From an uncultured Candidatus Saccharibacteria bacterium (GTDB lineage Bacteria > Patescibacteriota > Doudnabacteria > UBA920), in the NCBI GenBank assembly GCA_964612745.1, contig CAZTCH010000005.1, positions 5,448-69,447 on the forward strand: a DNA stretch of 64,000 nucleotides, in the 5' to 3' direction. Every line of letters begins with the position of its first letter. Position 1 is the stretch's first letter. Both the position numbers and the translations under genes were made by a program. Of the stretch, positions 12,684 through 47,286 are shown piece after piece. The notes under the pieces were generated by a model. That model saw only the letters and a program-made list of their open reading frames with translations, had not been told where the DNA came from and made no database searches.

Positions 12684-12684
12684 T

Positions 12685-14619: not shown

Positions 14620-15075
14620 GTAACGAGTAGCTAGTTGCTAGTTACGAGAAAGAAATAAGTCGTCACGTCTTAAAGTCTTAACGGCTTCACACCAGAAAAA
14701 CAGTAGAGTTAGATGGGCACCATCTGACACCATGCTCGTAGTTATGGTTTTGAGGGTACATCAACACAAGTAAATATAGAACTTACATGTCAGATGGTGC
14801 CCATCTAACGACAGAAAACTAGAAACTCAAAAGTCAAAACGCAAAACTTCAGGTCAAAACTGTAAACTTTAAATTCTGACCAGTTTTTAGTTTGCAGTTG
14901 AAGCTCCAGTCCGCCAACTGACGGATTTGAACTTTGTTATTTGTTTTTTAAAAAGCCGGAGCACCTGCTCCGGCTTTAAACTATTCTCTATTCTCCCCGC
15001 ACCTTGCGGAGCCCCGATGCGGCATCGGGGCTACTCTCTTCTCTTTCTCGTAACTAGCAACTAGCTACTCGTTAC
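14620..15075. mobile_element. 456-bp non-autonomous TIR-bounded repeat unit with perfect 33-bp terminal inverted repeats
   Basis: GTAACGAGTAGCTAGTTGCTAGTTACGAGAAAG at 14620-14652 is the exact reverse complement of 15043-15075. A MITE-like unit is nested inside. Confidence 0.7.
14709..14808. mobile_element. Approximately 100-bp MITE-like element with 21-bp TIRs (TTAGATGGGCACCATCTGACA)
   Basis: TIRs lie at 14709-14729 and 14788-14808. A second full copy is at 48892..48990. Confidence 0.7.
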
Positions 15076-15095
15076 TTAATCCGCCTACCGGCGGA

Positions 15096-26471: not shown

Positions 26472-27015
26472 TGTTGGAATAGACAAATATAAAAGAGTTC
26501 GACCTAGGGCGAACTCTTTCGGTAAACTTTTCTCATCTGGGTATGAGTGCGTATCTGATATATATCAGATAAGAAAAGTTTTGTAGCCCCTCCTCGAAAT
26601 TTAGAGCTACGTTTCCAAGTTTTTGCCCGCACAAACGGCGAGCGGCAATAATTGTGTTTTTACCCTTTACAAGAGCGAATTTTAGTAACTTGAGAAAGCT
26701 ACAAAAACTTTTTTGAGTACACTGGCACTCAATCGCTCTCCGAAAAGGAGAAATATTTGGCAAAAAGCCAAAAACTAAATAAAAACACTAAAAAAACAAT
26801 AACTTGGATATTTAGTATACCAGCGTTCAGGTAAATAGCCAAGTGAAGAAACAGGAAACATGAGAGCATATAAGCATGCAAACATCTAAACAAAATACGT
26901 AAAATGCAGATGGTGCCCATCAACACCTATGTTGATGGGCACCATCTGCAAACAAGATAAATGCGAAAGCCATTCTTACTAGCAAAAATGCCCTAGGCCA
27001 ACTCAAACACCCGAA

Positions 27016-27487: not shown

Positions 27488-27493
27488 AAACTT

Positions 27494-27527
27494 GGTCGTA
27501 AAGTAGACGGCCGTCTACTTTACGACC
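27494..27527. repeat. 34-bp perfect palindrome GGTCGTAAAGTAGACGGCCGTCTACTTTACGACC
   Basis: The palindrome is perfect. A near-identical copy (one mismatch) lies at 35749..35782. Confidence 0.9.
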
Positions 27528-27788
27528 AACGCAATAGTGATAACACAATGCACACAAGACGTATATAAAAGACAACTATTGTGATAAATAAAAAAAAGGG
27601 TGATCACTATGCAAGCTGATCACCCAGACAGACCCCATTACATTTTAAGATAGGAGAAGTAAAATATAATTGCTTTGCTTGGAAAACCAAGCAATTCTCC
27701 CTAAAATGATTAGGATCGGTTAATTTACCCTCCGGTAAATTTTTTGTGGGTAGGGGGCCCTTGAAGAGCCCCTTTCCCGTTCTTAGTT

Positions 27789-28220: not shown

Positions 28221-28658
28221 AGATGCAAAACTCCTTTTTCTGCAGAAGTTGACTTCCAACCCCACCCTTCAAATACAAGCAAGGAGGGAATGATTTGTCT
28301 ATACAGAGCAAAGCCCTGCAAGACAAAAGAGCAAATCTAAAGCTGGCCGAGCTAGCTTTAGATAAGAAAATAAACTTTTCACTACAAAACAGGGGTTACT
28401 TCTTCAAAAGAAGGGAGCAATTACAGCTCGTAACTTGAAATCGCAGATGAAAAATAAATTAACTTGCACGCATTGTATACCCGCTGGGAAAAACGTGCAA
28501 GGCTTTTCAATAGAACACAAATACCCCTTAAAATTGAGTGTTTAATTGTACATTTGTTATTTCCACAAAAGTTATCCACTGGAGGCATGCAAACATGTAA
28601 GCATTAGACCATGTAAATAAGAAGTACACAGCCCAAGCAGCCGTATTTTCCTGTTTTT

Positions 28659-28746
28659 ATGCTTCCATGCTTACATGTTTCTGTGTTTTGATGTTTTAAT
28701 GTTTACATGCTTACATGCTTAAATGTTTTGATGTTTAGATGTTTCA
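28659..28746 (+). repeat. Array of eleven 8-bp tandem units ATGYTTNN
   Basis: The units read atgcttcc atgcttac atgtttct gtgttttg atgtttta atgtttac atgcttac atgcttaa atgttttg atgtttag atgtttca. Confidence 0.85.
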
Positions 28747-28748
28747 AA

Positions 28749-28760
28749 AATGCTATACTA
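28749..28760 (+). promoter_or_regulatory. Candidate extended -10 promoter element for lemA
   Basis: TGCTATACT (TGn + TATACT) lies about 40 bp upstream of the lemA start. Confidence 0.35.
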
Positions 28761-28798: not shown

Positions 28799-29347
28799 AT
28801 GTGGGTATTTTTGATTATTTTGGCAGTAATAGTTATTGCTGCTGTTGGTTTGTACAATTCACTCATTCGCTCTCGCAACCGCGTGGACGAAGCATGGAGT
28901 GACATCGAAGTTCAGCTCAAGCGCCGCTATGACCTTATCCCAAACTTAGTAGAAACCGTGAAAGGTTTTGCTAAGCAAGAATCCAGTGTACTCGAAAACG
29001 TGACCAAAGCTCGCACCATGGCAATGAACGCTGGCACCTTAGAAGAAAAATTGAAAGATGAAAACATGCTTTCTGGTGCACTCAAGTCTTTGTTTGCAGT
29101 AAGCGAAAGCTACCCAGACTTGAAGAGCAACCAAAACTTCTTGCAAATGCAAGGCGACCTCCGCGAAACAGAAGACAAGATTCAAGCTTCCAGACGCTTT
29201 TACAACGGCACCGTCCGTGACTTCAACACAAAGCTCCAAGTCTTCCCTACTAACCTATTTGCTTCCATCCTTGGCTTTACAGCACGCACCTTCTTCGATA
29301 TAGACGAAAATGGGGTTGAGGGACAGAATGTCGCGGTAAAATTCTAA
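28799..29347 (+). CDS. lemA: LemA family protein
   Basis: An N-terminal TM is followed by a LemA-family signature region (ESSVLENVTKARTMAMNAGTLEEKLKDENMLSGALKSLFAVSESYPDLKSNQNFLQ...RRFYNGTVRDFNTKLQVFP). Confidence 0.8.
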   Translation: MWVFLIILAVIVIAAVGLYNSLIRSRNRVDEAWSDIEVQLKRRYDLIPNLVETVKGFAKQESSVLENVTKARTMAMNAGTLEEKLKDENMLSGALKSLFAVSESYPDLKSNQNFLQMQGDLRETEDKIQASRRFYNGTVRDFNTKLQVFPTNLFASILGFTARTFFDIDENGVEGQNVAVKF

Positions 29348-29392
29348 AATAGCACAGATACACAGATAAAACCGATTACTCAGATACCTACT

Positions 29393-29761
29393 ATGGAAAT
29401 TCCACCAGAAGAATTTACTTATAAGGTTATACGAGCGGTGTACGATGTATACAATGAGCTCGGTTTTGGCTATCAAGAAAAATACTACTACCGAGCATTA
29501 AAGTTAAAATTTACCTCACTAGGCTTTTCAGTAGAAGAGCAATTGCTTACCAGGCTTATGTTTGAAGGCAAAAGCATCGGTCGGTATTATTTAGATTTTC
29601 TACTGAACGGCTGTTTAGTAGTAGAACTAAAAGTAGCAACACAGGTATACCAAAAACATATCAATCAAGTATTGGGCTACCTAAAAGCAAACAATCTAAA
29701 ACTGGGAATCCTTGCAGTATATACTTCCCATAAAGTTATAATTAAACGGGTCATCAATTGA
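29393..29761 (+). CDS. GxxExxY-family protein
   Basis: The 122-aa size and the GxxExxY motif within ELGFGYQEKYYYRAL support this call. Confidence 0.6.
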   Translation: MEIPPEEFTYKVIRAVYDVYNELGFGYQEKYYYRALKLKFTSLGFSVEEQLLTRLMFEGKSIGRYYLDFLLNGCLVVELKVATQVYQKHINQVLGYLKANNLKLGILAVYTSHKVIIKRVIN

Positions 29762-29844
29762 TTCGTGTTATCAGTGTAATCTGTGTATCTGTGGTTATAT
29801 AAAATGCATTTAAATCATGCTCTTTTAGTGGTTCGTGGACAATT

Positions 29845-30803: not shown

Positions 30804-31292
30804 TTAGGAAGCAAGTGCAGCATGGATCGCAGCAGAGCGAAACCCACGCGCTTGAAGCTTACCGAGTATTTTTTGCTTGTCTGTAAAAACAAGTTCGGAA
30901 AATGACTCAATCGTATGACCAAATTTTTGTAATGCACGTACCACCGCTTGTTGTTCTTGCACAAGCCCAAAACCATCTTCTAACGCTTGTGTAATAATCG
31001 TGTTCGGAATGCGTTTTTGCAGCAGCTTGGCTTTGGCGTGGTGGAAGCCATACGATTTTACTTCTGCAAAACTCCTAACCAAACTTTCTGCATACCGTGC
31101 ATCATTTATATATCCCAGTTTCCGCACGTACTCTAAAGTCGACTCCACCACAGAAGCTACAAACCCTTTTTCTACCAACTTTTGTCGCAGCTCTGCTTCC
31201 GACTTCCAAGCAACCTGCAAAACCCGCAACACATACCCTTGCGCTACTACTTCCGATTCTGGTTGTTTTGTTCGTACAGTCTTTCCCCACAT
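30804..31292 (-). CDS. recX: Regulatory protein RecX
   Basis: The 162-aa protein has three-helix repeats typical of RecX (SEAELRQKLVEKGF...YINDARYAESLVRS...). Confidence 0.65.
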   Translation of the reverse strand: MWGKTVRTKQPESEVVAQGYVLRVLQVAWKSEAELRQKLVEKGFVASVVESTLEYVRKLGYINDARYAESLVRSFAEVKSYGFHHAKAKLLQKRIPNTIITQALEDGFGLVQEQQAVVRALQKFGHTIESFSELVFTDKQKILGKLQARGFRSAAIHAALAS

Positions 31293-31840
31293 ATACCAAT
31301 ACTATACAATAACTAGTTCCTAGTAACTAGTCGCGAGTTGCGAGAAAAACAGAACAGTCGAACGTCTTCATGTCTTAAGGTCTTCACGCCAGATTGTGAG
31401 AAGCACCAAACAATTACAAGTTTAAGTCAAAAATCAAAACTCAAAAGTCAAAACTTCAAATCAAAACTTTAAACTTTAATGCAATTCAGTTTTGAGTTTA
31501 TAGTTGCAGTTTTGCGTTTTGATTTTTGACTTTATAGTTCTTTCTTATGCTGTGCTTGTGATTTGGAATTTCTTCTTGCTACCCCCTAATTCCTAACTCC
31601 TAATTCCCAGCATTTGAAAGCTCTGTCTACTCTCTATTCTCTACCCTCCCTCCTACGCTAAAGCTTCGGCGGACTCCGCTTTTCGAAGTCTCTCTAATTC
31701 TACTATTTCTTCTCACTCTTCTATTTCTTCTTTCCACCCCTTTCTTGACAGTTATCACTCTCGTTGTTAGACTGACAATACATACGTACCCTACCCCAAA
31801 AATATCTGCTGGTACTGTGGCACTATAATAGAAACACCTT
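31293..31840. repeat. Mosaic intergenic repeat locus (modules M2, M1, the AAAACTCAAAAGTCAAAAC periodic block, CCTAATTCCTAACTCC and the GAGAATAGAG block in reverse orientation)
   Basis: It shares modules with 14600-15095, 45348-45780 and 48427-49091. Positions 31628-31740 are the reverse complement of 48480-48600. Confidence 0.75.
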
Positions 31841-34387
31841 ATGACAAACTTCAACTTTATTTTAGAACGCCTTTCATCGAGAGCGAAAAACGCCCTCATA
31901 GCTGCCCAGATAATTTCCGAAGAACAACTCTGTGACCATATTGGCACAGAGCATTTACTCTACGGTATTTATGCAGAAAAGAATTCTTTTGCTGCAGAAA
32001 TGCTTTCCCGCTCACAAGTCACTGCAGAAAAAATTAAAGCAGAGGTCTCCACACTAAACGCAAGCAATACTATCCCCGCTTGGAAGCCGATACTTTCAGA
32101 AAACCTGAAAACTGCCATAGAACGCGCTGCGATTGCTGCGAGTCAGTTTGGGTACCAATTTATTGGCACTGAACACTTGTTGTACGGCATTATTTCCTCC
32201 CCTGCCAACAAAGCAAAAACACTCCTGCAACAACTATCCATAGACAGCCACGAACTGGAGCACAGTTTGCTTGCGGTTTTTGAAAATATTTCTAAATTCC
32301 CCGAAGGGCAACAAAACGAAAACATGCCCAACAACCCAGCTATGGCGCAGCCTGGTGCACAACCCGCACGAGGCAACGTCCTAGAATTTTTCACTACCGA
32401 CCTTACCAAAAAAGCTGCAGCAGGAAAGATTGACCCCGTTATTGGCAGAAAAGCAGAAATCGAACGCATTACGTCCATATTGGCCAGACGAACCAAAAAT
32501 AACCCAGTTCTTATTGGCGAAGCAGGTGTAGGAAAAACTGCTATCGTGGAAGGACTTGCCCTTGCCATTAGCAAACGCGAAGTGCCAGATATTTTGCTAG
32601 ACAAAAAAATCTTAAGTCTCGACCTTGCGCTCGTAGTCGCTGGGTCCATGTTTCGTGGTGAGTTCGAAAACAGACTTAAGCAAATCTTGGACGAAGCCAA
32701 AGCAGACGAAGACATTATTCTGTTCATTGACGAACTCCACACCATGGTAGGCGCAGGCGCCACCCAAGGCAGCCTCGATGCAGCCAATATCCTAAAACCA
32801 GCACTCGCACGTGGCGAAGTCAGAGTTATTGGCGCCACCACGCTTGCAGAGTATAAAAAATATATTGAACACGACGCCGCACTCGAGCGACGATTTCAGT
32901 CAGTGCTCGTTGCCGAGCCAAGCAAAGCAGAAGCACTCGACATCTTACGTGGACTACGGCCAAACTACGAAGCACACCACAATCTGGAAATATCTGATGC
33001 AGCCCTGTCTGCTGCAGTCGAACTTTCTACTCGGTACATTCAAGACCACTTCTTGCCCGACAAAGCAGTCGACCTTATTGACGAGACCGCAGCATTTTTG
33101 CGCAGCCTGCATGAAAACTCAGCAGCGCTTCGCCAAAAAAAGAAAGTCGAAGCCGACCTCGCTACCTTAGAAGAAGAAAAGACCAAAGCAGTGTGGCAAG
33201 GCGATTTCGTGACAGCAGAGCACCTAAAAACCCAAGAGACACGCTTGCAAGAACAAATACAAAGCTTGGAAAAAGATATCACCGCGGAGCGCAAGAAACC
33301 AGTCCTCAAACTAACTGCAGAACACATCGCGCGCACTGTTTCTACCATTACAAAAATCCCTCTAGAGACTCTCTCCAAGACAGAAATTGGGCAACTGGCC
33401 ACCTTAGAAGAAACACTCAAGACACACGTGATTGGGCAAGATGAAGCAATTGGCGAAGTGGCCAAAGCAATTCGCAGAAGCAGAGCGGGACTGCACAACC
33501 CGCGCAGACCACTTGGCTCATTTATTTTCCTAGGACCAACTGGTGTTGGGAAAACTGAAACTGCCAAAGTTATTGCGCGCGAAGTCTTCCACGACGAATC
33601 TGCGCTCATTCGAGTAGACATGTCGGAATTCATGGAGCGCCACAATGTTGCCAGACTCATTGGTGCCCCTGCAGGTTATGTTGGGTACGAAGAAGGTGGT
33701 AGACTGACCGAATCTGTCCGCAGAAAGCCATATTCGGTTGTCCTATTCGACGAAATAGAAAAAGCGCATGGTGACGTGTTCAATATTCTGTTGCAAATTC
33801 TGGAAGATGGCATCCTGACCGATGCGCAAGGAAAAACAGTGTCATTCCGCAATACTATCATCATCATGACTTCCAACTTGGGCATGCAAGAGCTTACAAA
33901 CCAAGCAGTAAAGATTGGATTTGCAGACAAAGAAGAGCGCGGTACCAAAAACTCCCAAGTATCAGAACTCACCGAACAGTATGAATCTCTAAGAACTGGC
34001 GTACTCGCCCAAGTAAAAAAGCGTTTTAAACCAGAATTCGTAAATCGAATAGATAAAATTTTAGTATTCCGCCCACTCGGCATGGACGAACTCAAACGAG
34101 TAACCCAGCTCCAACTTATGGAAGTTGCCAAACGACTGAAAGAACGCCATATCAGTCTCAAGTACCCTGCGACGCTTGCGAAGTTCATTGCCGAGCAAAG
34201 CTTTGACCCTGCGCAAGGTGCACGATTCATTAGAAAAAACATAGAACGACTTGTAGAAGACCCTATTGCCGAAAAAATTATTCAATCGGGCATTCCCCCA
34301 AAGAGCACTGTAACCATAGAAGTGCGTGGCAATGCTTTGCGCTTTTCCGTAGAGAAAGCGCGCGTCCGCCAATTGGTAGCAGCATAA
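31841..34387 (+). CDS. clpC: ClpC-type AAA+ ATP-dependent unfoldase
   Basis: There are two Clp_N repeats, two Walker A motifs (GEAGVGKT and GPTGVGKT) and a short middle coiled coil, closer to ClpC than ClpB. A terminator hairpin lies at 34393-34423. Confidence 0.85.
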   Translation: MTNFNFILERLSSRAKNALIAAQIISEEQLCDHIGTEHLLYGIYAEKNSFAAEMLSRSQVTAEKIKAEVSTLNASNTIPAWKPILSENLKTAIERAAIAASQFGYQFIGTEHLLYGIISSPANKAKTLLQQLSIDSHELEHSLLAVFENISKFPEGQQNENMPNNPAMAQPGAQPARGNVLEFFTTDLTKKAAAGKIDPVIGRKAEIERITSILARRTKNNPVLIGEAGVGKTAIVEGLALAISKREVPDILLDKKILSLDLALVVAGSMFRGEFENRLKQILDEAKADEDIILFIDELHTMVGAGATQGSLDAANILKPALARGEVRVIGATTLAEYKKYIEHDAALERRFQSVLVAEPSKAEALDILRGLRPNYEAHHNLEISDAALSAAVELSTRYIQDHFLPDKAVDLIDETAAFLRSLHENSAALRQKKKVEADLATLEEEKTKAVWQGDFVTAEHLKTQETRLQEQIQSLEKDITAERKKPVLKLTAEHIARTVSTITKIPLETLSKTEIGQLATLEETLKTHVIGQDEAIGEVAKAIRRSRAGLHNPRRPLGSFIFLGPTGVGKTETAKVIAREVFHDESALIRVDMSEFMERHNVARLIGAPAGYVGYEEGGRLTESVRRKPYSVVLFDEIEKAHGDVFNILLQILEDGILTDAQGKTVSFRNTIIIMTSNLGMQELTNQAVKIGFADKEERGTKNSQVSELTEQYESLRTGVLAQVKKRFKPEFVNRIDKILVFRPLGMDELKRVTQLQLMEVAKRLKERHISLKYPATLAKFIAEQSFDPAQGARFIRKNIERLVEDPIAEKIIQSGIPPKSTVTIEVRGNALRFSVEKARVRQLVAA

Positions 34388-35657: not shown

Positions 35658-35748
35658 ACGATATATACATTAATAAATAACAATATGCTTATTATATCAA
35701 ACTGACCAAAAAAACCACCTCCTACAATCCCCACAGTAATAGACAGAT

Positions 35749-35782
35749 GGTCGTAAAGTAGACGGCCGTCTATTTTACGACC
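35749..35782. repeat. Palindrome GGTCGTAAAGTAGACGGCCGTCTATTTTACGACC (second copy of the 27494 element)
   Basis: There is one mismatch relative to the perfect copy. It is flanked by GATGGTGCCCATC-type motifs (35807-35823). Confidence 0.85.
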
Positions 35783-36124
35783 ACGGGGAAAATACATGCC
35801 AGATGTGACAGATGGTGCCCATCATTAAGCTACTCCCCCACAAGAGAAAAACGACTATACAAACGATAGTCGTTTTTCTAGAAGCGGAGAGGGGGGATTC
35901 GGTCACCCACGGTGGAACTTCAACTCCTCAAGAGTCGTTTCAGTTCACACCTAACGAATTCGCGATGAATGGAATTCATTTCCATTCAAGCTCGTGTCGA
36001 CCCCGTCGCTATTTCATGCTCCAAGTATTCGCAGTTCATCCCGATGTACATCGGGACGCTCTTTTCGAACCCCAGCTCTCCTTATTCCAGAAGAAGCATA
36101 GCTACGAAGTAACTATGCTTCTTC

Positions 36125-36214
36125 TGGCGGAGAGAGGGGGATTCGAACCCCCGGACGGCTTTCACCGTCAGCGGTTTAGCAAACCGCCGCACTAGGCCAC
36201 TATGCGACCTCTCC
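36125..36214 (-). tRNA. tRNA-Ser (anticodon GCT), long variable arm, CCA encoded
   Basis: GGAGAGGTCGCATAGTGGCCTAGTGCGGCGGTTTGCTAAACCGC...GGGGGTTCGAATCCCCCTCTCTCCGCCA. A terminator hairpin lies at 36075-36123. Confidence 0.9.
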
Positions 36215-36363
36215 AGAACGTATCAAGCCTATTTCGCTACCTAGATATGGTAGCTAAAAAACACCCTCGCGTCAAAGTGCGACCCACACCCCCACCATTG
36301 CAAATACCCACAAAAACTAGGTATACTGAGCAGTAGAAACTGCAGACAATAAGCCCAATCTCT

Positions 36364-37089
36364 ATGTCTTACTTTTTACACACAGCAGAACTCACCACAG
36401 GCGGGCACGACAGCCTGACCGGTGAAGAAGCACGCCATGCGCTACACGCACGCCGGAGCAAAGTGGGTGAGCACATAGAAGTACAGACACCCGCAGGACG
36501 CCGCTATGACTGCGTCATAACCGGTATACAGAAAACAACTTTAGAGTTTACGGTTGCACAAGAAATATCCACACCAGCAGAACCAGCCGTAGCCGTAACC
36601 ATTTGTCTTGCCTACATTAACGAACAAGCATTAGACATCTGCATTCAAAAAGCAACAGAGCTTGGAGCAGCAGCACTTACTATATTCCCTGCAGCCAACT
36701 CTCCCCACGCGCCCAAAGAAACAAAACTTGCACGTTGGCAAAAAATTAGCACCGAAGCAGCCAAACAATGTGGCCGTCGCTTCCCACTAGCAATATCCAC
36801 CAGTCAATCACTAGAAGAGACACTTACCACCACTTCTGGCATCCGTATGTACACAGCAGCAAACGCCCCTGAATCACTCAGACTCCCCACTCCTTCGCCC
36901 ACCACAGTGTGCATCTGGGTTGGTCCCGAAGGCGGGTTTAGCACCGAAGAGGCCCACATCTTCGAAACACATGGCGTACAAGCTGCGTCCCTCCCCGGCT
37001 ACACCTTACGCTCCGAAACAGCAGCGATTACCGCGATTGGCGTTACATTGAGCCAAGCCGCCCAAACCAGCACCACACCCCTGAGTTAA
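36364..37089 (+). CDS. rsmE: 16S rRNA (uracil1498-N3)-methyltransferase, RsmE family (SPOUT)
   Basis: It shows RsmE architecture, with a PUA-like N-terminus and a C-terminal WVGPEGGFSTEE...SLPGYTLRSETAAI. Confidence 0.75.
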   Translation: MSYFLHTAELTTGGHDSLTGEEARHALHARRSKVGEHIEVQTPAGRRYDCVITGIQKTTLEFTVAQEISTPAEPAVAVTICLAYINEQALDICIQKATELGAAALTIFPAANSPHAPKETKLARWQKISTEAAKQCGRRFPLAISTSQSLEETLTTTSGIRMYTAANAPESLRLPTPSPTTVCIWVGPEGGFSTEEAHIFETHGVQAASLPGYTLRSETAAITAIGVTLSQAAQTSTTPLS

Positions 37090-37126
37090 CCATATATTTC
37101 CAATATTCTGGCTCATTTGTAACAAC

Positions 37127-37717
37127 ATGGACAGTCAAAACGTCTACAATATCAGGAAAGAAAACAAAGTGCCAGAACGTTCTTTAGAAACTGGAATTTT
37201 TGAACAAGCGCAAAAAGGGGATCTCGAAGCTCTGGGAGTAATTTACGATCAGTACTTTGAGCGAATCTTTAAGTTTGTGTACTTCAGAACCAGCCACAAA
37301 GAAACTGCGGAAGACATAACCGAGGCAGTGTTCAGCAAAGCATTCAAAGCACTCCCAACGCAAGATGGCGGTGCTGGAAAATTCTCTGCGTGGTTATTCC
37401 AGATTGCTCGAAATGCCGTTATTGACCACTACCGACAAAAGAAAGTAGTCATAGCGCTGGAAGATTTAGAGCACGAACCGAGTTACAACACCACCGTGGT
37501 AGATGAACTTGCCACACAGCACGAACACCACATGCTACTGAAAGGCTTAGACCAGCTCGACCCTCTCCAAGCGACTGTGGTAAAACTCCGCTTTCTGGAA
37601 GACTTGAGCATCAAAGAAATTGCAGCGCAACTTGGCAAGACCCAAGGTAACATACGCATTATGCAATTCCGCGCACTAGAACAACTCAGAAAACATATTA
37701 GTAAGCAACAATTGTGA
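37127..37717 (+). CDS. ECF-type RNA polymerase sigma-70 family factor
   Basis: Region 2 (FSAWLFQIARNAVIDHYRQ) and the region 4 HTH (LSIKEIAAQLGKTQGNIRIMQFRALEQLR) are present. Confidence 0.8.
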   Translation: MDSQNVYNIRKENKVPERSLETGIFEQAQKGDLEALGVIYDQYFERIFKFVYFRTSHKETAEDITEAVFSKAFKALPTQDGGAGKFSAWLFQIARNAVIDHYRQKKVVIALEDLEHEPSYNTTVVDELATQHEHHMLLKGLDQLDPLQATVVKLRFLEDLSIKEIAAQLGKTQGNIRIMQFRALEQLRKHISKQQL

Positions 37718-38799
37718 TATACGAACAGTTCCAAGCATATAGACTCGAAAAACGCCTACGCACACTAGGTGGTTTTGACGCTGGAACAAAAGACGAACTC
37801 ACTGCCCTTGCAGCAGCGATTTCACAAATCCCAAAAGCAAGCTACCCTACCCCACACAAACGCCGCGCCTATTTAACCACTGCAAGCCTCCCCCATGTCG
37901 CCCACGGACTCCGTATGGCAACACTCGCAGGCAGACTCGCTGGTGCTACTCTTGTGTTAGGAATACTCACTACAACCGTTTTTGCATGGGCAAGTAAACC
38001 TGGGAGCACTTTGTACGTATACAAAAACCGCACCCAAGACTTACGTCTAAAACTAGTCGCCAGCGAAACTGAAAAAGCAGACCTCAGACTGTCTTTTGCA
38101 GAGAGCAGACTAGCAGAAACGCAAACACTTTTGGAAAGCAACGCAGACAGCAGCACAAAGACTGCAGCTATTTCTGCACTCGCCAAACAAACCGAGCAAA
38201 CGGTAGCAATTGTAAAACAAGTTGCTTTAGACCAAAAAGATACTGGACTTCTGGACCGCTTGCAGACTATTACAGACAAGCAGACCGAAGTAATTTCTAG
38301 CACCTCTGACCCAGAAGTACAATCTGTTGCCCAAAGCGCTCTGAAAACTACCGCAGAAGGTACAAAGCAAATTGCCGAAACCAAACGCCTCGTTATAGCT
38401 GGTAGCGAAGCAGCGCTAGCAAAGCTAAACACCACAACTACCAGCACCGGCACAGTAACCAAAGTGACCTCCGACAAAGTATACATTGCAAAAGAAGTCT
38501 TTAGCATAAACGCCGAAACCAAAGTAGTGGTAGACACACAACTCGAAGCACTGAAACCAGTGGTACTCGCTGGACAACAAGTAAGTATTTCTGCAACACA
38601 AATAAGTACCGGAGAACTAGTCGCTACAGAAATTCGCATTACCGCAGTTGGAAAAGTAAGAGGCACCACGACTACCACCCCAGAGCCAACTCCAACCATA
38701 GAAGAAACAATCCCCGAAGACGCAAATCCAGAAAACGCTCCCCCAGCAGCACAAGCAGGATTCTTGGTAGAAGACCCTGCCCCACTCTACAACGAGTAA
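37714..38799 (+). CDS. Membrane-anchored protein downstream of the ECF sigma (putative anti-sigma factor / DUF5667-like coiled-coil ectodomain)
   Basis: There is a 4-nt ATGA overlap with the sigma gene. A single TM (LAGATLVLGILTTTVFAWA) is followed by a long helical ectodomain. Confidence 0.45.
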   Translation: MIYEQFQAYRLEKRLRTLGGFDAGTKDELTALAAAISQIPKASYPTPHKRRAYLTTASLPHVAHGLRMATLAGRLAGATLVLGILTTTVFAWASKPGSTLYVYKNRTQDLRLKLVASETEKADLRLSFAESRLAETQTLLESNADSSTKTAAISALAKQTEQTVAIVKQVALDQKDTGLLDRLQTITDKQTEVISSTSDPEVQSVAQSALKTTAEGTKQIAETKRLVIAGSEAALAKLNTTTTSTGTVTKVTSDKVYIAKEVFSINAETKVVVDTQLEALKPVVLAGQQVSISATQISTGELVATEIRITAVGKVRGTTTTTPEPTPTIEETIPEDANPENAPPAAQAGFLVEDPAPLYNE

Positions 38800-39075
38800 C
38801 TTCAGTTTTGGAACCGGCTCCAATCCCCGCATTGGAGCTCATTCCGGAACGGAAATCCATACCGGACAACAGCAGGCTCAATGCCCGCTGCGCAGAAACA
38901 AAGCAATTTTGTGCTCATAAACCGAGTGCAAAACAACACAAAAACAGCCTAATTCTAGAGATATGGCTGTTTTTGTTTTCTCTGGCATAACAAGACAAAA
39001 ATAGATATAATAAGCACAGGCAAATGGCGCTAAAGCAGTACGCAGCTGGTAGGGCTTCAGCGGCATATACATTGT

Positions 39076-39163
39076 GGAGAGGTCGCATAGTGGTCTAGTG
39101 CGGCGGTCTTGAAAACCGTTGTACCGAAAGGTACCGAGGGTTCGAATCCCTCTCTCTCCGCCA
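39076..39163 (+). tRNA. tRNA-Ser (anticodon TGA), long variable arm, CCA encoded
   Basis: GGAGAGGTCGCATAGTGGTCTAGTGCGGCGGTCTTGAAAACCGTTGTACCGAAAGGTACCGAGGGTTCGAATCCCTCTCTCTCCGCCA. Confidence 0.9.
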
Positions 39164-39361
39164 CAGATAGGTTGGTCAAATATGGTCAATCTATCTGTGT
39201 TAAATATAAGTCTGGTAGTTAAACCAAAAATAGTAAAGTAGGGTTTATTTAAAAAGAAGACATAATCAAAAAATATTCTAGCTGTAAAGCAACTATCTTT
39301 TGGTCTGGAAATCAAAACTAAGTAATTTTTTGTGCTTCAAAAAGTGTAAAATTTGAAATAT

Positions 39362-40408
39362 ATGGCTAACAAAAGTAAAAAAATAGAAGTTATTGATCTT
39401 TTCAGTGGAGTGGGAGGTTTAACGTATGGATTAAGAAAATCAGGATTATCAGTTTTAGCTGGTGTTGATAATGATGATTCATGCGCATATGCGTATGAGA
39501 AGAATAATAAAGCTAAATTCATCTCCGCTGATATTTCTGATTTTGATTTTAAAAAATTGAATAAAATTTACTCTAAAGATAGTGTTCGAGTGCTCGTTGG
39601 GTGCGCCCCATGTCAACCGTTTTCTTCTCATGCTTTTAAACTACGTAAAGACGCAAGTGATGTACGGTGGAATTTGCTAGATCATTTTATTCGCGGAGTC
39701 AAAGTCGTAAAACCAGACATTGTTTCAATGGAGAATGTCCGAGGTGTGACAAAGACTGATGTTTTTAAAAATTTTGTCAGCGAACTTGAAAAGCTTGGTT
39801 ATAAAGTTGATTGGAAAGTTGTATACGCTCCCAACTATGGTGTCCCTCAAAATCGTAGCCGCCTTATCCTGCTTGCTTCAAGGCTTGGTGAGATTGCGAT
39901 ACCAAAGGAAACTCATACGAAAGAAAATTATGTCACGGTCGGAGACATAATTTGTGAACTACCGAGTATTGAAGCAGGAGAAGTATCAAAGCAGGATCAA
40001 TTACACCAAGCAAAGAAACTTGAACCTATTAATAAAAAGCGGATTTTACAATCAAAGCCTGGCGGTACTTGGCGAGATTGGGATAAGAGCCTTTTACCAA
40101 ATTGCTACAAAAAAGACAGCGGGCAAACGTACACGGCTGTGTATGGGCGGATGAGATGGGAGGATGTATCACCAACCATTACTACACAATTTACCAGTTA
40201 TGGATCTGGCAGGTTCGGGCATCCAACGCAGAATCGAGCACTTTCCATCCGCGAGGGTGCGTTATTACAGACATTTCCCATTGATTACGATTTTGGGAAC
40301 TTTCCTGCCGCAAAGCTGAGTAGACACATTGGAAATGCAGTACCACCGCAATTAGGAATGGTTATTGGTAGGCAGATAAAGAAGCATCTTGAAACATATG
40401 GAAAGTGA
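39362..40408 (+). CDS. DNA (cytosine-5)-methyltransferase
   Basis: All C5-MTase motifs are present: I FSGVGG, IV GCAPCQPFS, VI MENVRG, VIII QNRSRLIL, X IGNAVPPQL. The ORF-track start at 39353 is a TTG; ATG at 39362 is more likely. The gene is AT-rich relative to its neighbours. Confidence 0.9.
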   Translation: MANKSKKIEVIDLFSGVGGLTYGLRKSGLSVLAGVDNDDSCAYAYEKNNKAKFISADISDFDFKKLNKIYSKDSVRVLVGCAPCQPFSSHAFKLRKDASDVRWNLLDHFIRGVKVVKPDIVSMENVRGVTKTDVFKNFVSELEKLGYKVDWKVVYAPNYGVPQNRSRLILLASRLGEIAIPKETHTKENYVTVGDIICELPSIEAGEVSKQDQLHQAKKLEPINKKRILQSKPGGTWRDWDKSLLPNCYKKDSGQTYTAVYGRMRWEDVSPTITTQFTSYGSGRFGHPTQNRALSIREGALLQTFPIDYDFGNFPAAKLSRHIGNAVPPQLGMVIGRQIKKHLETYGK

Positions 40409-42101
40409 AAAGTATACATTCAATATCTCACTGAGTGTTTTAAATCATCTTGGAAGGAACTTATATCGCAGTTTTCCCACTGTCTTAGGCGAAGCAATTT
40501 CTAACGCATGGGATGCAAATGCTAAAAATGTCTGGATTGAAATAGACAGAGACAATAACAGGTTCTGGATCAAAGATGATGGTGTTGGTATGGACTCCAA
40601 AGATTTTAAAGAAAAATTTTTAAAAGTTGGATATTCGAAACGAACAAGAGGAGGCATGACTTCACCAGAGCCATTTTCTCGTCCTTACATAGGAAATAAA
40701 GGCATTGGAAAGTTAGCTCTCTTATCATGCGCTGACAAAATAACAGTCATTTCAAGAAAAACAAAAGAAGACGACTACGTAGGAGGAGCAATTGACAACT
40801 CGGGACTAGATAAAGCAATACTGGATGATACATCTTCACATGACTACCCTCTTGAGCCCGCAGACGAATCGCTATTCACATCTATAAAAACCAGTCACGA
40901 CAACGGGACAATTATTTGTTTTGAAAATATCAAAGAAGGAATTCACAATACTGATGATTTTTTGAAAAAAATAATAGCACTTCATTTTCGGTTTTCTCTC
41001 GTTGATCCGAATTTCAATATTTATCTAGATGGCGAACTAGTAACACTTGAGTCGCTGAAAAGCATCGCGGAGAAAACCGAATTTGTTTGGAATATAAATG
41101 ATTGGACTGGCGATGATTATCTCGAAAAATATTGCGCTAATGTTCACAAAACTATACCTACTAAAATGTCCGACAATGTCACGGGCTTTATCGCGTCTGT
41201 TGAATTTCCAAAGGATAGAAACATACATTCGACAGGTGAAAAAGTTGGTGTGGACTTGTTTGTAAATGGGCGCGTAAGAGAAACTGACACCTTAAAACAC
41301 ATTCCTTCCGCCCAGCTCCCTGAGAACTATCTGTATGGACAGATCCACTTTAATGCACTGGATGAAGACGGGAAAGATCGGTTTATTAGTAGCCGAGAGG
41401 GCGTGCTCGCCGACGACCCCCTTTACAAAGGGTTTTTAGACGAGCTAAAAAAGACCATTCTTTCAATAATGGATCAATGGGATGATCTTCGTGATAAACG
41501 TGGCAAGGACGGAGATCTTGAAAAAGCATCCAAAATAAAAAAAGCAAAATCCTTGGTTCGGGAAGTTGCGAAAGAATACACAACTGGATCTAAAGATAAC
41601 GATGACTTTATTAGGAATCTTATCGACGACGCTGCTTATAATAGCAGTAGTTACGCCCAATGCTTTATCTCTGAAAATCTGTTACGTAGACATATTGACG
41701 GTGATGGAATGACGCCCTCTGTTTGTCTAAATAAAGAACCGAGTGGTAATACCTGCTCTGATAGGAACAAGTTAGATCAAAAAAACACCAGCTTCTGTGC
41801 ATATTGCAAAGGCGAGCGTCGCAAAAATTTATTGCAGGATGAAAAAAAGAATGCAGGAACTTCAATACAGATTAGAAGCGCCGAAGATAACCTCCTAATG
41901 TATTTGGACTATGTTGATCTCGCAAAAATTATTGATGACCGCATCCTCAAGGATGAGGACAAGCCTTATAAACCACTCAGAAATTCTGTCATGCACACTG
42001 CTAGACTAACAGAAGAAGCAAAAACAAAGCTGACATCCGTTTTTGATAATGTTGTAGCAACAGTTAAAAAACTGGTTAGCGATACCGAAGAAAAAGAATA
42101 A
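40398..42101 (+). CDS. GHKL-superfamily (HATPase_c / MORC-MutL-like) ATPase with uncharacterised C-terminal half containing a Cys4 cluster
   Basis: The Bergerat-fold boxes N (EAISNAWDANA), G1 (DDGVGMD) and G2 (GNKGIGKLA) are present. There is a C-terminal CLNKEPSGNTC...CAYC cluster. The gene overlaps the MTase stop by 11 nt. The ORF-track start at 40389 is a TTG. Confidence 0.75.
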   Translation: MESEKYTFNISLSVLNHLGRNLYRSFPTVLGEAISNAWDANAKNVWIEIDRDNNRFWIKDDGVGMDSKDFKEKFLKVGYSKRTRGGMTSPEPFSRPYIGNKGIGKLALLSCADKITVISRKTKEDDYVGGAIDNSGLDKAILDDTSSHDYPLEPADESLFTSIKTSHDNGTIICFENIKEGIHNTDDFLKKIIALHFRFSLVDPNFNIYLDGELVTLESLKSIAEKTEFVWNINDWTGDDYLEKYCANVHKTIPTKMSDNVTGFIASVEFPKDRNIHSTGEKVGVDLFVNGRVRETDTLKHIPSAQLPENYLYGQIHFNALDEDGKDRFISSREGVLADDPLYKGFLDELKKTILSIMDQWDDLRDKRGKDGDLEKASKIKKAKSLVREVAKEYTTGSKDNDDFIRNLIDDAAYNSSSYAQCFISENLLRRHIDGDGMTPSVCLNKEPSGNTCSDRNKLDQKNTSFCAYCKGERRKNLLQDEKKNAGTSIQIRSAEDNLLMYLDYVDLAKIIDDRILKDEDKPYKPLRNSVMHTARLTEEAKTKLTSVFDNVVATVKKLVSDTEEKE

Positions 42102-42451
42102 GGAGTAACCTACATGAGTAACGGGCTTGCGTCAGGAGAGAATAAACAGGCAAACGTATACAGGTTTGTTTGCACCCTCTAACAACCAGCAGCTTTTTTC
42201 CTTGCTACAAGTCACATCACGAATACCTTGAACACCGAAACAGTCGGCTCAAACTAATACCATCGGACCATGTTCAGGTAGTACGTATGATTTATATAGA
42301 CTAGAGCACAAAACGCAGATAGGTATACCTCAGAATTCCTGACAGGAAACAATCACACAATGTCCAAATAATTTAGCCAGTGACAATAACCCAGTTAAAA
42401 TCAGACTGCGCGAAAATCTGCTATACTACTAGTAGAAGTTAGATTTGTTCT

Positions 42452-42925
42452 ATGTCCGAAACAAACACAGTACATTTTGAATGGCAGGCGCACGAGTTTA
42501 AGCCGTACGAAAAGTCTATCGTATGGTACATTGGACTGTGTGTTATTGTAACACTCTTGGCGCTGTACCAGTTTTTTGTTGCAGACTACTTTGGTGCTAT
42601 TACCATGGTTATTTTGGGAGCGCTTATTATTTTCTTTGCCAAACGCAAACCAGAAATAGTACAACTCTCTCTCGACGACGAAGGAGTAGGCATTGGCGAA
42701 CTACGTTTCCCCTACCGCCACTTTAAACACTTTTGGATTGTAACCACCAAAGACCACAGAACACTAAACCTAGAAGCAAGCACTTATCTTTCGCAAACAG
42801 TTATACTAGAGCTCGAAGACCAAGACCCAGAAAAGATTCGCAAGTTTTTAGTAAAACATGTGCCAGAGTCGGAGCGAGTCATCCCTTCGTTCTCCCAGCG
42901 CATTGCTCACCGCCTGAAATTCTAA
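42452..42925 (+). CDS. Membrane protein with two TM helices and a bacterial PH-like domain
   Basis: The TMs are IVWYIGLCVIVTLLALYQFFV and ITMVILGALIIFFA, followed by a soluble ~90-aa domain. Confidence 0.45.
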   Translation: MSETNTVHFEWQAHEFKPYEKSIVWYIGLCVIVTLLALYQFFVADYFGAITMVILGALIIFFAKRKPEIVQLSLDDEGVGIGELRFPYRHFKHFWIVTTKDHRTLNLEASTYLSQTVILELEDQDPEKIRKFLVKHVPESERVIPSFSQRIAHRLKF

Positions 42926-42982
42926 ACATGCTCACCCGAGCATGTTTTCATTTCCCTGTTTGCTCACACGTTACTTATTTTC

Positions 42983-43030
42983 CTGTTTAGATGTTTCTAT
43001 GTTTACATGTTTGCATGTTTAAATGTTTCC
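42983..43030 (+). repeat. Second ATGTTTNN 8-bp tandem array (six units)
   Basis: The units read ctgtttag atgtttct atgtttac atgtttgc atgtttaa atgtttcc. The array lies 70 bp upstream of tRNA-Arg. Confidence 0.8.
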
Positions 43031-43097
43031 ACGCCCCACCCCTTGTCCCCCACCCGTATATTGCGTACAATAACCCTCGGGTGTACATACTTGTGTT

Positions 43098-43174
43098 GTT
43101 TTCGTAGCTCAACTGGATAGAGCGCAGCCCTCCGAAGGCTGAGGTTGTGGGTTCAAATCCCGCCGAGAACACCA
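43098..43174 (+). tRNA. tRNA-Arg (anticodon CCG)
   Basis: GTTTTCGTAGCTCAACTGGATAGAGCGCAGCCCTCCGAAGGCTGAGGTTGTGGGTTCAAATCCCGCCGAGAACACCA. This is a 77-nt cloverleaf with a G-U pair in the acceptor stem. Confidence 0.85.
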
Positions 43175-43253
43175 GAAGCTTGCACGCCACATACCCCACA
43201 GCTGCTCGTATACGCAGCTTTTTTATTTAGTTTCTGCGTGATACCATACATGC

Positions 43254-45347
43254 ATGCACTTACACACCCCCCTTGTACAACTGACTGGCGTTGGAGAAAA
43301 ACAAGCCAAAACCCTTCAGAGCATGGGTGTGTCTACCGTGGCAGATTTACTCCAGTATTTCCCCACACGGTATTTGGACTTTAGCAAGTTTGTACCAATT
43401 GCATCTGCTGTTGCGGGCGAAGTAGTCACTATTTCCGGGACTATTAGCAGTATTTCTTCTCGGTTTAGCTTTAAAACCAGAAAAACAGTCGCAGAAGCAA
43501 CTGTTACAGACGCCACCGGAAAAATACATGCCACATGGTTTAACCAAGGCTACATAGCCACTGCACTGCAAAAAGGTGACGCTGTGCTTCTTTCGGGCAA
43601 AGTAAATATATTTAAAGATAAACTGCAACTTGTAAACCCCATATACGAAAAAGCAACTACAGAGAGCATCCACACGGGCAGATTAGTACCCATATACAAA
43701 CTCCCGGAAGGCATGTTTCCTAAAACATTCCGCAAGCTGGTGCATGCAGCGTTACCTGTGGCAAAAGAACTGGAAGATGCGATACCGAAGACTACCAGAG
43801 ACGAATACAGCCTGCCCACACTTTCGGAAAGCATACAAGAGTTACATTTCCCCAAGTCCGAAGAATCGGTACAAGCTGCTCGCCACCGCATGGCTTTTTT
43901 TGAGCTGCTCGTCCAGCAAATGGCAGTCCTCGAACACAAAAAAATCCTGCGCGCACAAGCAGCACCGAGCATAGATCTTCCCAAAAAAGTACAAACCCAA
44001 CTTACCAAAAAACTCCCCTTTCGCTTAACCGAAGGGCAGCAAAATGCTCTGACAGAGATAGTGTCCGACCTTGCACACAAGCACCCCATGAACCGATTAT
44101 TGCAAGGAGATGTCGGCAGTGGTAAAACAATCGTCGCCCTCCTTGCTGCGGTTGCCTGCATTATGCACGGCTACCAAGCACTCTTTGTTGCCCCAACCGA
44201 AGTCCTCGCGCGCCAACACTTTTTATCCCTTGCCAAGCTACTGGAGACCATGGGTATTCCTGCGTCTGCGCTTCTCTATAGCAGAAGCTTTAAAGAAAGC
44301 TCTACTACGGGCACTCTTACAAAAAAAGCTGCACAAGCAGCTATTGCCAGTGGCGAAGCACGACTCATAGTTGCCACGCACGCCATTCTCCAAGAAGATG
44401 TGCAATTTGCACACGTTGCACTCGTCGTCATAGACGAACAACACCGGTTTGGGGTTGGGCAACGAGCAGAAGTCATACGGGCAGACAAAAACTGTAACGT
44501 ACCCGTAGCGGGAAGCAGCAACCAAAGCTGGACCCCACACCTTTTGTCCATGAGCGCTACCCCTATCCCAAGAACAGCAGCGTTAGCCTTGTGTGAAGAC
44601 TTAGACATTAGCACCATTCCCGAGCCACCCAAGCACAAACTCCCGATTAAAACATGGGTTGTACCAGAAGCTAAGCGCGCTGGCTCTTACGATTTTATAA
44701 CAAAAGAAATAGACGCAGGGCACCAAGCATTTATAGTGACCCCACTGGTAGAAGAATCCGAAAAGCTTGCAGCAAAGGCAGCAAAAGCAGAATTTGAGCG
44801 ACTCGCAAAAGAAGTCTTCACCACACAAAGACTCGGTTTGTTGTATGGCACCATGAAAGGGGTAGAAAAAGAACAAGTCATGGCGCAATTCGCTGCACGT
44901 GAGTTAGATATTCTCGTGTGTACCTCTGTAATCGAAGTCGGCATAGATATACCGAATGCCACAGTCATAGTAATAGAAAATGCAGATAGATTTGGCCTCG
45001 CCCAACTGCACCAACTCCGCGGTCGGGTTGGACGTGGAAGCGCACAATCGTATTGCTTTCTGTTTTCCGAAACAACTAGTGCAAATAGTCGGCTGAACTT
45101 CTTTAGCAAAGAAGCAGATGGCTTTGCCCTTGCGAAATACGACATGGAACAACGCGGCTTTGGGACGCTGTTTAGCAGCGCACAAACAGGATTCGCACTC
45201 ACATTCGGCGAATTTGTGACCATGCCGCTCTTGGCACAAGCCAAAGCAGCAGCGCATACAATAGACGCGAAAAGTAAGACTTTACCAGAACACAGCAGAC
45301 TACTCTCACTTGCAAATAAGTACTTGCAGGGAATGCATATGGAATAG
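43254..45347 (+). CDS. recG: ATP-dependent DNA helicase RecG
   Basis: The N-terminal wedge region (LTGVGEKQAKTLQSMGVSTVADLLQYFPTRY), Walker A GDVGSGKT, DEQHRFGV and the helicase C-terminal motifs (QLHQLRGRVGRG) are all present. Confidence 0.9.
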   Translation: MHLHTPLVQLTGVGEKQAKTLQSMGVSTVADLLQYFPTRYLDFSKFVPIASAVAGEVVTISGTISSISSRFSFKTRKTVAEATVTDATGKIHATWFNQGYIATALQKGDAVLLSGKVNIFKDKLQLVNPIYEKATTESIHTGRLVPIYKLPEGMFPKTFRKLVHAALPVAKELEDAIPKTTRDEYSLPTLSESIQELHFPKSEESVQAARHRMAFFELLVQQMAVLEHKKILRAQAAPSIDLPKKVQTQLTKKLPFRLTEGQQNALTEIVSDLAHKHPMNRLLQGDVGSGKTIVALLAAVACIMHGYQALFVAPTEVLARQHFLSLAKLLETMGIPASALLYSRSFKESSTTGTLTKKAAQAAIASGEARLIVATHAILQEDVQFAHVALVVIDEQHRFGVGQRAEVIRADKNCNVPVAGSSNQSWTPHLLSMSATPIPRTAALALCEDLDISTIPEPPKHKLPIKTWVVPEAKRAGSYDFITKEIDAGHQAFIVTPLVEESEKLAAKAAKAEFERLAKEVFTTQRLGLLYGTMKGVEKEQVMAQFAARELDILVCTSVIEVGIDIPNATVIVIENADRFGLAQLHQLRGRVGRGSAQSYCFLFSETTSANSRLNFFSKEADGFALAKYDMEQRGFGTLFSSAQTGFALTFGEFVTMPLLAQAKAAAHTIDAKSKTLPEHSRLLSLANKYLQGMHME

Positions 45348-45780
45348 GAGCTAGTTGCGAGTAACTAGTTACGAGTTGCGAGAAAGACAAAGAAGTCGTC
45401 ACGTCTTAAAGTCGAACGGAGAAGGAAAAAGAGAATAGAGAGTAGAGAATAGAGGGTAGTAAGACAGGAATTAGGAGTTAGGCTTTAGTCAGCACCAAAT
45501 CTCAAGCACGAAATAACAAACAAATTCCAATCCGCCAGCTGGCGGACAAAATCCCAAACAAATACACCAACAACTAAAAAATCAAAACTCAAAAGTCGAA
45601 ACTTCAAATCAAAACTGTAAACTGCAATGCAATGCAGTTTTGACTTTATAGCTCTTTTTTATTTCGTTCTTGTAATGTGGGGTTTCCCAATAAATACAGT
45701 AGGAGTTGGAAAAATTAAAAATTGAAAATTGAAAATTGAAAATTTATCCTTCCTATTCTCTATTCTCTACTCTCTACCCT
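45348..45780. repeat. Mosaic intergenic repeat locus between recG and radA
   Basis: The modules are M2 (45350-45390), M1 (45393-45420), GAGAATAGAGAGTAGAG (45425-45462) with its inverted partner at 45751-45785, GGAATTAGGAGTTAGG, CCAATCCGCCAGCTGGCGGAC, the AAAACTCAAAAGTCGAAAC block and GAAAATTGAAAATTGAAAATT. Confidence 0.75.
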
Positions 45781-47130: not shown

Positions 47131-47286
47131 ACAAGTAAAATCAAAATTAAAAATCCAAAAACCAGAAAAACAAAACTCAAGAACACCAACACCTGTTTGA
47201 AATTTTGTATTCGTTTTTGGATTTTATGTGTCGCCTGAGCAGTCCGTGACGACTCCTACCTTTCACTCACACTGCTCAAAAGTCGG

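Follow-up and report, generated by a model that had tools for sequence, protein, structure and literature searches.

Six intergenic spacers in a 64-kb stretch of chromosome from an uncultured bacterium of the Candidate Phyla Radiation (CPR; Patescibacteria) are assembled from the same short sequence modules, set in differing orders and orientations. We consider it probable that these spacers owe their size to several families of short non-coding repeats, which co-exist here and have enlarged the six loci in this lineage alone. The whole stretch is hereafter called the window, and the spacers are lettered A to F along it (Table 1). An earlier note on this DNA, made from the letters alone, had described the six loci as a mosaic of independent modules, and had proposed that two long inverted copies at 31.6 and 48.5 kb, located in spacers C and F, could drive inversion of the 17 kb between them. 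All six modules that it named are present at or near the positions it gave, and all six loci are gaps between genes. Its mosaic description also holds when close relatives are compared, as their orthologous spacers carry different sets of modules.

The window belongs to a 90.5-kb contig from sample SRR12762304, has a G+C content of 45.8% and is about 87% coding. Its nearest genome record is a metagenome-assembled genome labelled Candidatus Saccharibacteria, and the best homologues of two of its proteins, a TolB-like protein and MiaA, come from Candidatus Doudnabacteria or other Patescibacteria. A Nostoc-type reading of the repeats, with a cyanobacterial origin, was considered and rejected because the homologues of the flanking proteins proved to be those of Patescibacteria and Doudnabacteria. 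The data analysed comprise the window and about 60 kb of related contigs at three distances: L011, L012, L015 and L017, at about 95-96% DNA identity (aquatic metagenome PRJNA377521); L001, L004, L008 and L016, at about 88-90% (GCA_964652865.1, ERZ4216102); and L005 and L018, at about 70-71% protein identity (SRR14234069). A search for RecX in the genome contigs returned one true relative. Wider searches brought little: BLAST of spacers C and F against the PLSDB plasmids gave nothing relevant, and the exact 19-mer of module M1 had two chance matches in metagenome contigs, in unrelated contexts, and none in viral contigs.

Recurrence of the modules in the window is far above expectation, as estimated with dinucleotide-preserving shuffles. 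The M1 core GTCTTAAGGTCTTCACG has 8 matches (0.09 expected), the palindrome P2, AGATGGGCACCATCT (AGATGG-GCA-CCATCT), has 9 (0.03 expected), and the palindrome P1, TCCGCCNNNNGGCGGA (TCCGCC-N4-GGCGGA), has 6 (1.08 expected), all but one of them non-coding. Dispersed repeats take up 1653 of the roughly 8400 non-coding bases, about one fifth, and occur in coding DNA essentially only in one repeat-domain gene, in tRNA genes and in miaA. Tandem arrays of period 7 amount to 3.5% of non-coding versus 0.01% of coding DNA, and to 330 nt observed versus a mean of 0.9 nt after shuffling. Periods 8 and 9 share this non-coding bias, and almost none of them appear in shuffled spacers.

Three classes of repeats can be distinguished: degenerate tandem arrays of 7-9 nt units, tiny GC-rich palindromes, and composites of 60-360 nt. 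The units of the first class are M2 (CNAGTWR)n, M1 (GTCTTNAN)3, D4 (AAAACTN/AAAAGTC)n, E1 (AGAGAAT/AGAGGGT)n, G1 and W (GAAAATT)n, to which we add K, (TGCTAAG)6, (TAGAAGAAT)n, (CACAGATA)n and (ATGTTTAC)n. Period 7 is dominant. Many arrays come as inverted pairs; these give long hairpins on folding, or enclose a small gene or a spacer. Among the palindromes, P2 forms four doublets in the window (Table 1) versus one singlet; these doublets measure 40-105 nt, with 4-66 nt between the P2 copies and perfect arms of 17-22 nt. The heptamer-hairpin block D4, of 113 nt, is found in direct orientation at 31406-31518, 45554-45666 and 48772-48884 with 78-89% identity, and as a partial copy at 14817-14903; D4 has five independent copies, three of them with truncated right arms, and its heptamer arms can be aligned in more than one way. 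P1 always follows the same end of K, and a P1-like centre lies inside one P2 doublet.

The earlier note treated each module as an independent unit, which is true in part. Modules do recur in varied contexts; they also travel as composites that reappear as collinear blocks, and so are not fully independent. M2 is followed by M1 at four sites (5807/6020, 14617/14657, 31313/31362 and 45351/45393), the pair M1-W is common to miaA and to the recX-clpC spacer of relatives, and a block of about 360 nt, made of M1, a P2 doublet like a MITE (miniature inverted-repeat transposable element), D4, P1 and K, is collinear between 14.6-14.95 kb and the reverse complement of 48.7-49.05 kb. Within this block, the P2 doublet has its 57-nt interior turned round with respect to the flanks, the interiors at 14708-14809 and 48891-48991 being direct while the composites are inverted; either the interior has flipped between its perfect 22-nt arms, or two insertions have occurred at one site in opposite orientations.

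Failure of the modules to recur elsewhere had been named in the earlier note as what would reveal chance similarity. They do recur, inside the window and beyond it, as with the E1 array at the far end of contig L009, and relatives carry them at sites that are not orthologous: L008 has D4 and a P2 doublet, L004 has M2, and L005 and L017 have a P2 variant. Loci of the window that had not been listed before are 1151-1222, 2402-2467, 5795-6095 (inside miaA), 10581-10620, 12253-12300 with 12683-12731, 26856-26950, 28586-28752, 29341-29805 and 42960-43036. One of the six original loci, spacer E, is a weak member of the set, in which no module is significant.

Table 1. Repeat modules and associated features, with window coordinates
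Feature	Position	Strand	Context and remarks
Spacer C	31293-31840		flagged mosaic between recX (30804-31292, -) and a clpB/C-like gene (31841-34387, +)
M2, spacer C	31313-31348	+	degenerate heptamer array (CNAGTWR)n with GAGAAA end
M1, spacer C	31362-31393	+	octamer array (GTCTTNAN)3, then CGCC
K-D4-K' long hairpin	31399-31573	+	inverted AAAACTN/AAAAGTC arrays between K arms; minimum free energy -46.7 vs -28.2 in shuffles, z -5.2
G1	31585-31610	-	heptamer array (GGAATTA/GGAGTTA), reading CCTAATT as reverse complement
U, left copy	31630-31743	+	pyrimidine-rich (78% C+T): E1 array, small GC hairpin, 9-mer array
Sigma-70-like promoter, TTGACA-17-TAGACT	31745-31773	+	for the clpB/C-like gene; consensus match only, 10/12, TG before -10
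Spacer F	48427-49091		between TolB-like gene and 349-aa gene
U, right copy	48471-48603	-	6.4 TAGAAGAAT units; 44 nt upstream of TolB-like gene start
(TGCTAAG)6	48613-48654	+	heptamer array
K arm, P1 (48748-48763) and D4 hairpin block	48707-48884	+	P2 doublet replaces right K arm
P2 inverted doublet, MITE/REPIN-like	48891-48991		22-nt perfect arms, 57-nt interior, z -6.1
Two M1 octamer arrays	49003-49032, 49058-49076	-
Spacer D	45348-45780 (mosaic to 45788)		nested palindrome between convergent recG and radA, z -5.1; M2, M1, E1, G1, K, P1 (45531-45546), D4, K', W, E1'
Spacer B	14600-15095		between gatC and 1341-aa surface-protein gene; whole-spacer fold z -14.2
Modules of spacer B	14617-15095		M2 (14617-14653), M1, P2 doublet (14708-14809), D4, P1 (14910-14925), K', terminator-like hairpin (14951-14977), M2' (15042-15076), P1 (15080-15095)
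Spacer A	9183-9375		before GH1 glycosidase gene; K (9208-9248), K' (9306-9357), M1 reverse complement (9363-9398, overlapping the GH1 gene end)
Spacer E	47131-47286		weak member, between radA and TolB-like propeller gene; A/T-rich hairpin and M1 remnant only
P2 doublet with P1-like centre	10581-10620		17-bp hairpin between GH1 gene and gatB, z -6.9
P2 doublet, tail-to-tail	26905-26950		opposite arrangement
Modules in frame inside miaA (gene 5639-6877)	5795-6095	+	M2 (5807-5842), 30-nt tandem repeat (5870-5975), M1 (6020-6046), W (6053-6080)

Genes remain collinear among close relatives while the modules of their spacers turn over, and the expansion of the spacers is lineage-specific. Where the window has spacers of 665, 156, 433 and 496 nt, the corresponding spacers of L005 and L018 measure 67, 129, 26 and 55 nt, the last being spacer B in L018. 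In spacer C, L001 and L016 retain both flanks, with M2, M1, U (91%) and the promoter-like site of clpC; in place of 31377-31633, these relatives have a different mosaic of 204 nt. Spacer F is 618 nt in this comparison versus 270 nt in L004, whose modules differ and which has neither U, D4 nor the P2 doublet. The orthologue of spacer A in L008 contains two elements not present in the window's copy, a P2 doublet and a complete D4 hairpin. Even L017, at 95% identity, differs from the window in spacer D by a second P1 within the P1 loop, by an extra block of about 170 nt containing a P2-variant doublet with 20-nt perfect arms, by 14 nt (two heptamers) in E1', and by different modules in the place of M2. 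The P2 doublet at 10581-10620 is conserved at the orthologous site in L008, P2-variant doublets are found in both L005 and L017, and the orthologue of spacer E in L005 contains a short AAAGTCAAAACT/AGTTTTGACTTT hairpin.

Several of these differences are whole repeat units. M2 of spacer C is exactly one 7-nt unit shorter in L001, E1' changes by two heptamers as stated above, the left copy of U has 4.3 of the 9-nt TAGAAGAAT units versus 6.4 in the right copy, and the number of 30-nt repeats (a decapeptide in MiaA) varies among three populations. Such unit-step changes are the signature expected of slippage.

Inside miaA the modules are translated. They make up an insert of about 100 aa, residues 53-153 standing for five residues of the solved Bacillus enzyme 2qgn. 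This insert is not simply a recent insertion, since two of its peptides, SNELRVT and NWKLKIENS, are old and conserved, being kept down to relatives of 53-57% identity. At the DNA level, a 26-nt core of M2 is identical in L018, where the gene as a whole has 65.5% identity and no other exact run exceeds 15 nt.

The most likely way in which the repeats spread may be sketched as follows. Replication slippage would alter the number of units in arrays, palindromes would spread or grow symmetrically by way of their hairpin form, and composites would be reshuffled when spacers with modules in common undergo ectopic recombination or gene conversion. For the palindromes, a candidate route is a Y1 transposase of the type associated with repetitive extragenic palindromes (REPs), known as RAYT (REP-associated tyrosine transposase), which recognises single-strand hairpins and would be encoded elsewhere in the genome; an alternative is template switching within the hairpin. 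For the most part, the elements would be selfish or neutral; individual hairpins may have been recruited as terminators or as sites of RNA processing.

Expansion by such repeats has several observations to contend with. Transposase, RAYT and recombinase genes are absent among the open reading frames (ORFs) of the window scanned with Pfam and NCBIfam. The differences between relatives are mostly replacements, not clean insertions with defined ends, and so fit transposition and recombination alike. The second P1 of L017 (TCCGCCA-TCCGCCA-ACC-GGCGGA-GGCGGA) is equally well explained by nested insertion or by symmetric duplication of the arms, and the latter would also account for the origin of inverted arrays of short units. 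Finally, the identity of the M2 core in miaA and the persistence of a hairpin in the 71% relative suggest function, not pure selfishness.

These last two observations belong to the alternative that fares best, namely that the modules are selected cis-acting signals (terminators, RNase III processing stems around spacers and small genes, structures of untranslated regions, or arrays bound by a heptamer-recognising protein) whose recurrence reflects shared regulation. As a general account we regard it as unlikely; for individual hairpins it is a serious rival. Folding is indeed strongly non-random, with z-scores of -5 to -14 at repeat spacers and hairpins versus -0.7 for a repeat-free control spacer, and K-D4-K' units form hairpins of 175-196 nt with z around -5. 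In spacer D, E1/E1' and K/K' are nested around D4. The M2 and M2' arms that bracket spacer B are complementary at 35 of 35 positions, though M2 copies differ from each other by about 18%, and inverted arrays likewise bracket two small genes. The arms of P2 doublets are 94% paired, and 9 of 23 pairs have changed on both sides, which none of 500 shuffles reached; this covariation comes from a small sample of five members with arms extracted by hand. Also favourable are the canonical terminator-like hairpin of spacer B, the hairpin of the spacer between radA and the TolB-like gene, and the position of both U copies, with the same polarity, directly upstream of two predicted promoters. Against a regulatory role, populations that are 90-95% identical differ by the gain, loss or replacement of entire modules, a given block can be found in either orientation and whether the neighbouring genes are divergent, convergent or in tandem, U is missing from the orthologous TolB spacer of a relative at about 90%, and the 71% relative is devoid of most such material at these sites. 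Neither did RNA searches find a known class: the earlier note had suggested covariance models as a check for structured small RNAs, and with those of Rfam 15 only three tRNA genes reached the gathering score, no module being matched at E up to 1. Spacers C and F gave no hit in a terminator scan. The functional reading fits poorly with such rapid turnover and freedom of context.

A CtsR-operator or CIRCE-like (controlling inverted repeat of chaperone expression) reading of the heptamers AGTCAAA and GTGCTAA was dropped, as their spacing and symmetry, judged by eye only, do not fit.

The growth of palindromes, their copying and their retention can also be combined into a single proposal, quite unlikely when taken as a whole, in which this CPR lineage carries a self-propagating hairpin system. 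Palindromes may grow by symmetric duplication of their arms into inverted arrays of 7-9-mers; these may move as copies from spacer to spacer and into genes, either with no conventional transposase at work or with the help of one not yet described; a host factor recognising heptamer arrays may hold at least one array, the 26-nt M2 core of miaA, at the DNA or RNA level; and hairpins with K arms may be ORF-less derivatives of small-gene cassettes flanked by inverted repeats, with PF05635 or PF13366 genes.

Small genes of these two families are indeed present in the window. A 123-aa gene with the PF05635 domain, "23S rRNA IVS protein" (intervening sequence), occupies 12312-12683 on the minus strand between gatB and gatA, and is bracketed by inverted K-type arrays (12253-12731). 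In L018 the gap between gatB and gatA is 6 nt and the gene is missing; it has the appearance of a cassette that was inserted. When the gene was looked up by exact match, its source context alone was returned. Inverted (CACAGATA)n arrays bracket a 122-aa gene with the nuclease-fold domain PF13366 (PD-(D/E)XK_3; 29341-29805), and arrays of the same octamer form hairpins on both sides of an M50 protease gene (1151-1222 and 2402-2467).

The proposal of the earlier note, by which the inverted copies of U mediate RecA-dependent flipping of the 17-kb segment from clpC to the TolB-like gene and make the population heterogeneous, is very improbable. Its starting point is sound: over 103 nt, 31630-31731 and the reverse complement of 48501-48603 are 89% identical, the longest exact run being 43 nt, and the D4 blocks at both loci are in direct orientation, as had been stated. 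With 43 nt of exact match, RecA could occasionally bring about an inversion, and on a small scale the P2 doublet does show a flip, that of its 57-nt interior between the composite copies. No sign of the larger flip was found. In L001 and L016 recX still adjoins clpC, L004, L005 and L017 preserve the order 349-aa gene, TolB-like gene, radA, recG, and none of these five assemblies has the alternative orientation (assemblies were compared, reads were not examined). GC skew is negative through the segment without a change of sign at 31.6 or 48.5 kb, its only departure being at 38-44 kb, and the Pfam and NCBIfam scan found no recombinase or invertase family among the scanned ORFs in or beside the segment. 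In a relative at about 90%, the two spacers share at most 18 nt, so that the long inverted pair is a recent and lineage-specific copy.

The position of the two copies points the same way. Both lie just upstream of likely core promoters, with the same polarity relative to their genes. The left copy, weakly structured (z -1.8), ends 1 nt before the -35 hexamer of clpC; for the TolB-like gene, an extended -10 (TGnTATACT) was read by eye, and the promoter scan found none. Because they share this polarity, recombination between the copies would swap no pairing of promoter and gene: an inversion would leave the upstream sequence of each gene unchanged and alter only the strand of the 17 kb. The U pair is probably a by-product of the shuffling of composites and not an inversion switch; a 17-kb inversion is possible but unsupported, and the specific claim of an invertible segment does not stand.

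That the mosaics are chimeric joins made by assemblers at low-complexity repeats can hardly be credited: short-read contigs do often stop at these repeats (L007 at 533 and 11042, L011 and L012 at 1133, L017 8 nt before the start of the TolB-like gene at 48434, and L009 within an E1 array some 3.9 kb past the end of the 64-kb window), but SRR12762304 was also assembled independently in Logan, with 100% identity over 533-11042, including the miaA insert and spacer A, and contigs from other samples (L001, L016, L004, L008 and L017) read through the orthologous spacers, where they have identical neighbours and modules in common.

Other features of the window deserve mention. A perfect palindrome of 36 nt, TGGTCGTAAAGTAGACGGCCGTCTACTTTACGACCA, is present in two copies (97%) at 27493-27528 and 35748-35783, each directly past the end of a gene, and represents a further family of repeated hairpins; arrays of the octamer ATGTTTAC and its variants, partly inverted, occupy three spacers (26856-26892, 28586-28752 and 42960-43036). 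A low-GC stretch (0.41) at about 36100-44000, where GC skew is close to zero, encodes a C5 cytosine methylase (Dcm; 39353-40408) and a GHKL-ATPase protein (40389-42101) and adjoins a pair of tRNA genes, nearly identical and in inverted orientation (36128-36214 and 39076-39160); this stretch of about 36-44 kb is probably an acquired island. The 349-aa gene beside spacer F heads a cluster of PrgI, TraC-like and VirB4-like genes. Within a 746-aa ORF without Pfam match (60227-62467), a DNA segment of about 456-483 nt is repeated three times with 73-83% identity.

Genomes of CPR bacteria are usually described as small and compact. Here, spacers are enlarged up to ten-fold by fast-evolving repeats, which implies that genomes of this compact type can host elements comparable to the palindromes and dispersed repeats of other bacteria. 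A practical consequence is that short-read assemblies of these organisms break at the repeats, limiting contiguity; conversely, the repeats could be used as strain markers. The populations at 95% and 90% identity offer a natural series in which to follow the spread of tiny palindromes and heptamer arrays, and the in-frame copy in miaA indicates that the same sequences can become protein. A full-text literature search found no description of such repeat families in CPR bacteria or Patescibacteria.

Among known systems, the REPs of enterobacteria and the bacterial interspersed mosaic elements (BIMEs) that they form (Ton-Hoang et al. 2012, PMC3333891) offer the first parallel. In both cases short GC-rich extragenic palindromes are clustered with other motifs into mosaics of variable order and orientation, without target-site duplication: at the P2 doublets, flanks read AGA/GAC (14708-14809), GTC/TCT (48891-48991) and ATT/GAC (L017), and no duplication was found. 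REPs and BIMEs have cognate Y1 transposases, the RAYTs (PF01797), whose genes are typically flanked by the palindromes (PMC3333891). The repeats of the window, in contrast, have no sequence similarity to REPs, no RAYT gene was found in the window, the host is a CPR bacterium, and A/T-rich tandem arrays of 7-9-mers, which BIMEs lack, are dominant.

The P2 doublets come close to the REPINs (REP doublets forming hairpins) of Pseudomonas (Bertels and Rainey 2011, PMC3116915): inverted doublets outnumber singlets by four to one, each forms one long hairpin, the arms covary, and the family persists in relatives down to about 70% protein identity. They differ in the distance between the P2 copies, which here ranges from 4 to 66 nt. 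When compared to MITEs of insertion sequences with DDE transposases, they possess the terminal inverted repeats (22 nt; 20 nt in L017) and lack the target-site duplication. Neither the window nor the related loci yielded a full-length parent element with P2-doublet ends; public collections were not scanned with the P2 arm.

The small dispersed repeats (SDRs) and short tandemly repeated repetitive sequences (STRRs) of Nostocaceae (Elhai et al. 2008, Genome Res 18:1484, as cited in PMC3116915 and PMC5861425) are alike in several ways: intergenic heptamers co-exist with dispersed palindromes of about 16-27 nt, and their distribution differs between close relatives. Nesting of very small repeats in one another and in a constant context may be a further parallel, given the second P1 in the P1 loop of L017, which also reads as symmetric duplication of the arms, the P1-like centre of a P2 doublet and the fixed place of P1 after K. 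SDRs are reported only in Nostocaceae (PMC5861425). The present host, by contrast, is a CPR bacterium. STRR heptamers of Nostocaceae reportedly go back to Mazel et al. (1990), and their units are not known to match those of the window.

Heptamer repeats as such are in general excess in bacteria, as discussed in PMC4692102. The TAACTGA repeats of Beggiatoaceae, Cyanobacteria and Bacteroidetes (MacGregor 2015, PMC4679880) share with ours the concentration of period-7 direct repeats in spacers, the occasional in-frame occurrence in an ORF and the variation of length between close relatives; here, however, heptamer units are many, often form inverted hairpin arrays and are not preferentially located upstream of start codons. 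In-frame, translated modules in a housekeeping gene also recall the small mobile sequences described in genes (Delihas 2007, PMC2759123; review PMC3184786), with the difference that part of the miaA insert is old and conserved. By analogy, then, the region appears to work like REPs and BIMEs, REPINs, SDRs and STRRs, and heptamer repeats while being a member of none of these kinds, because it has no known sequence relation to them, no RAYT was found in the window and its host belongs to a different phylum. It is a lineage-specific set of mosaic intergenic repeats in a CPR bacterium.

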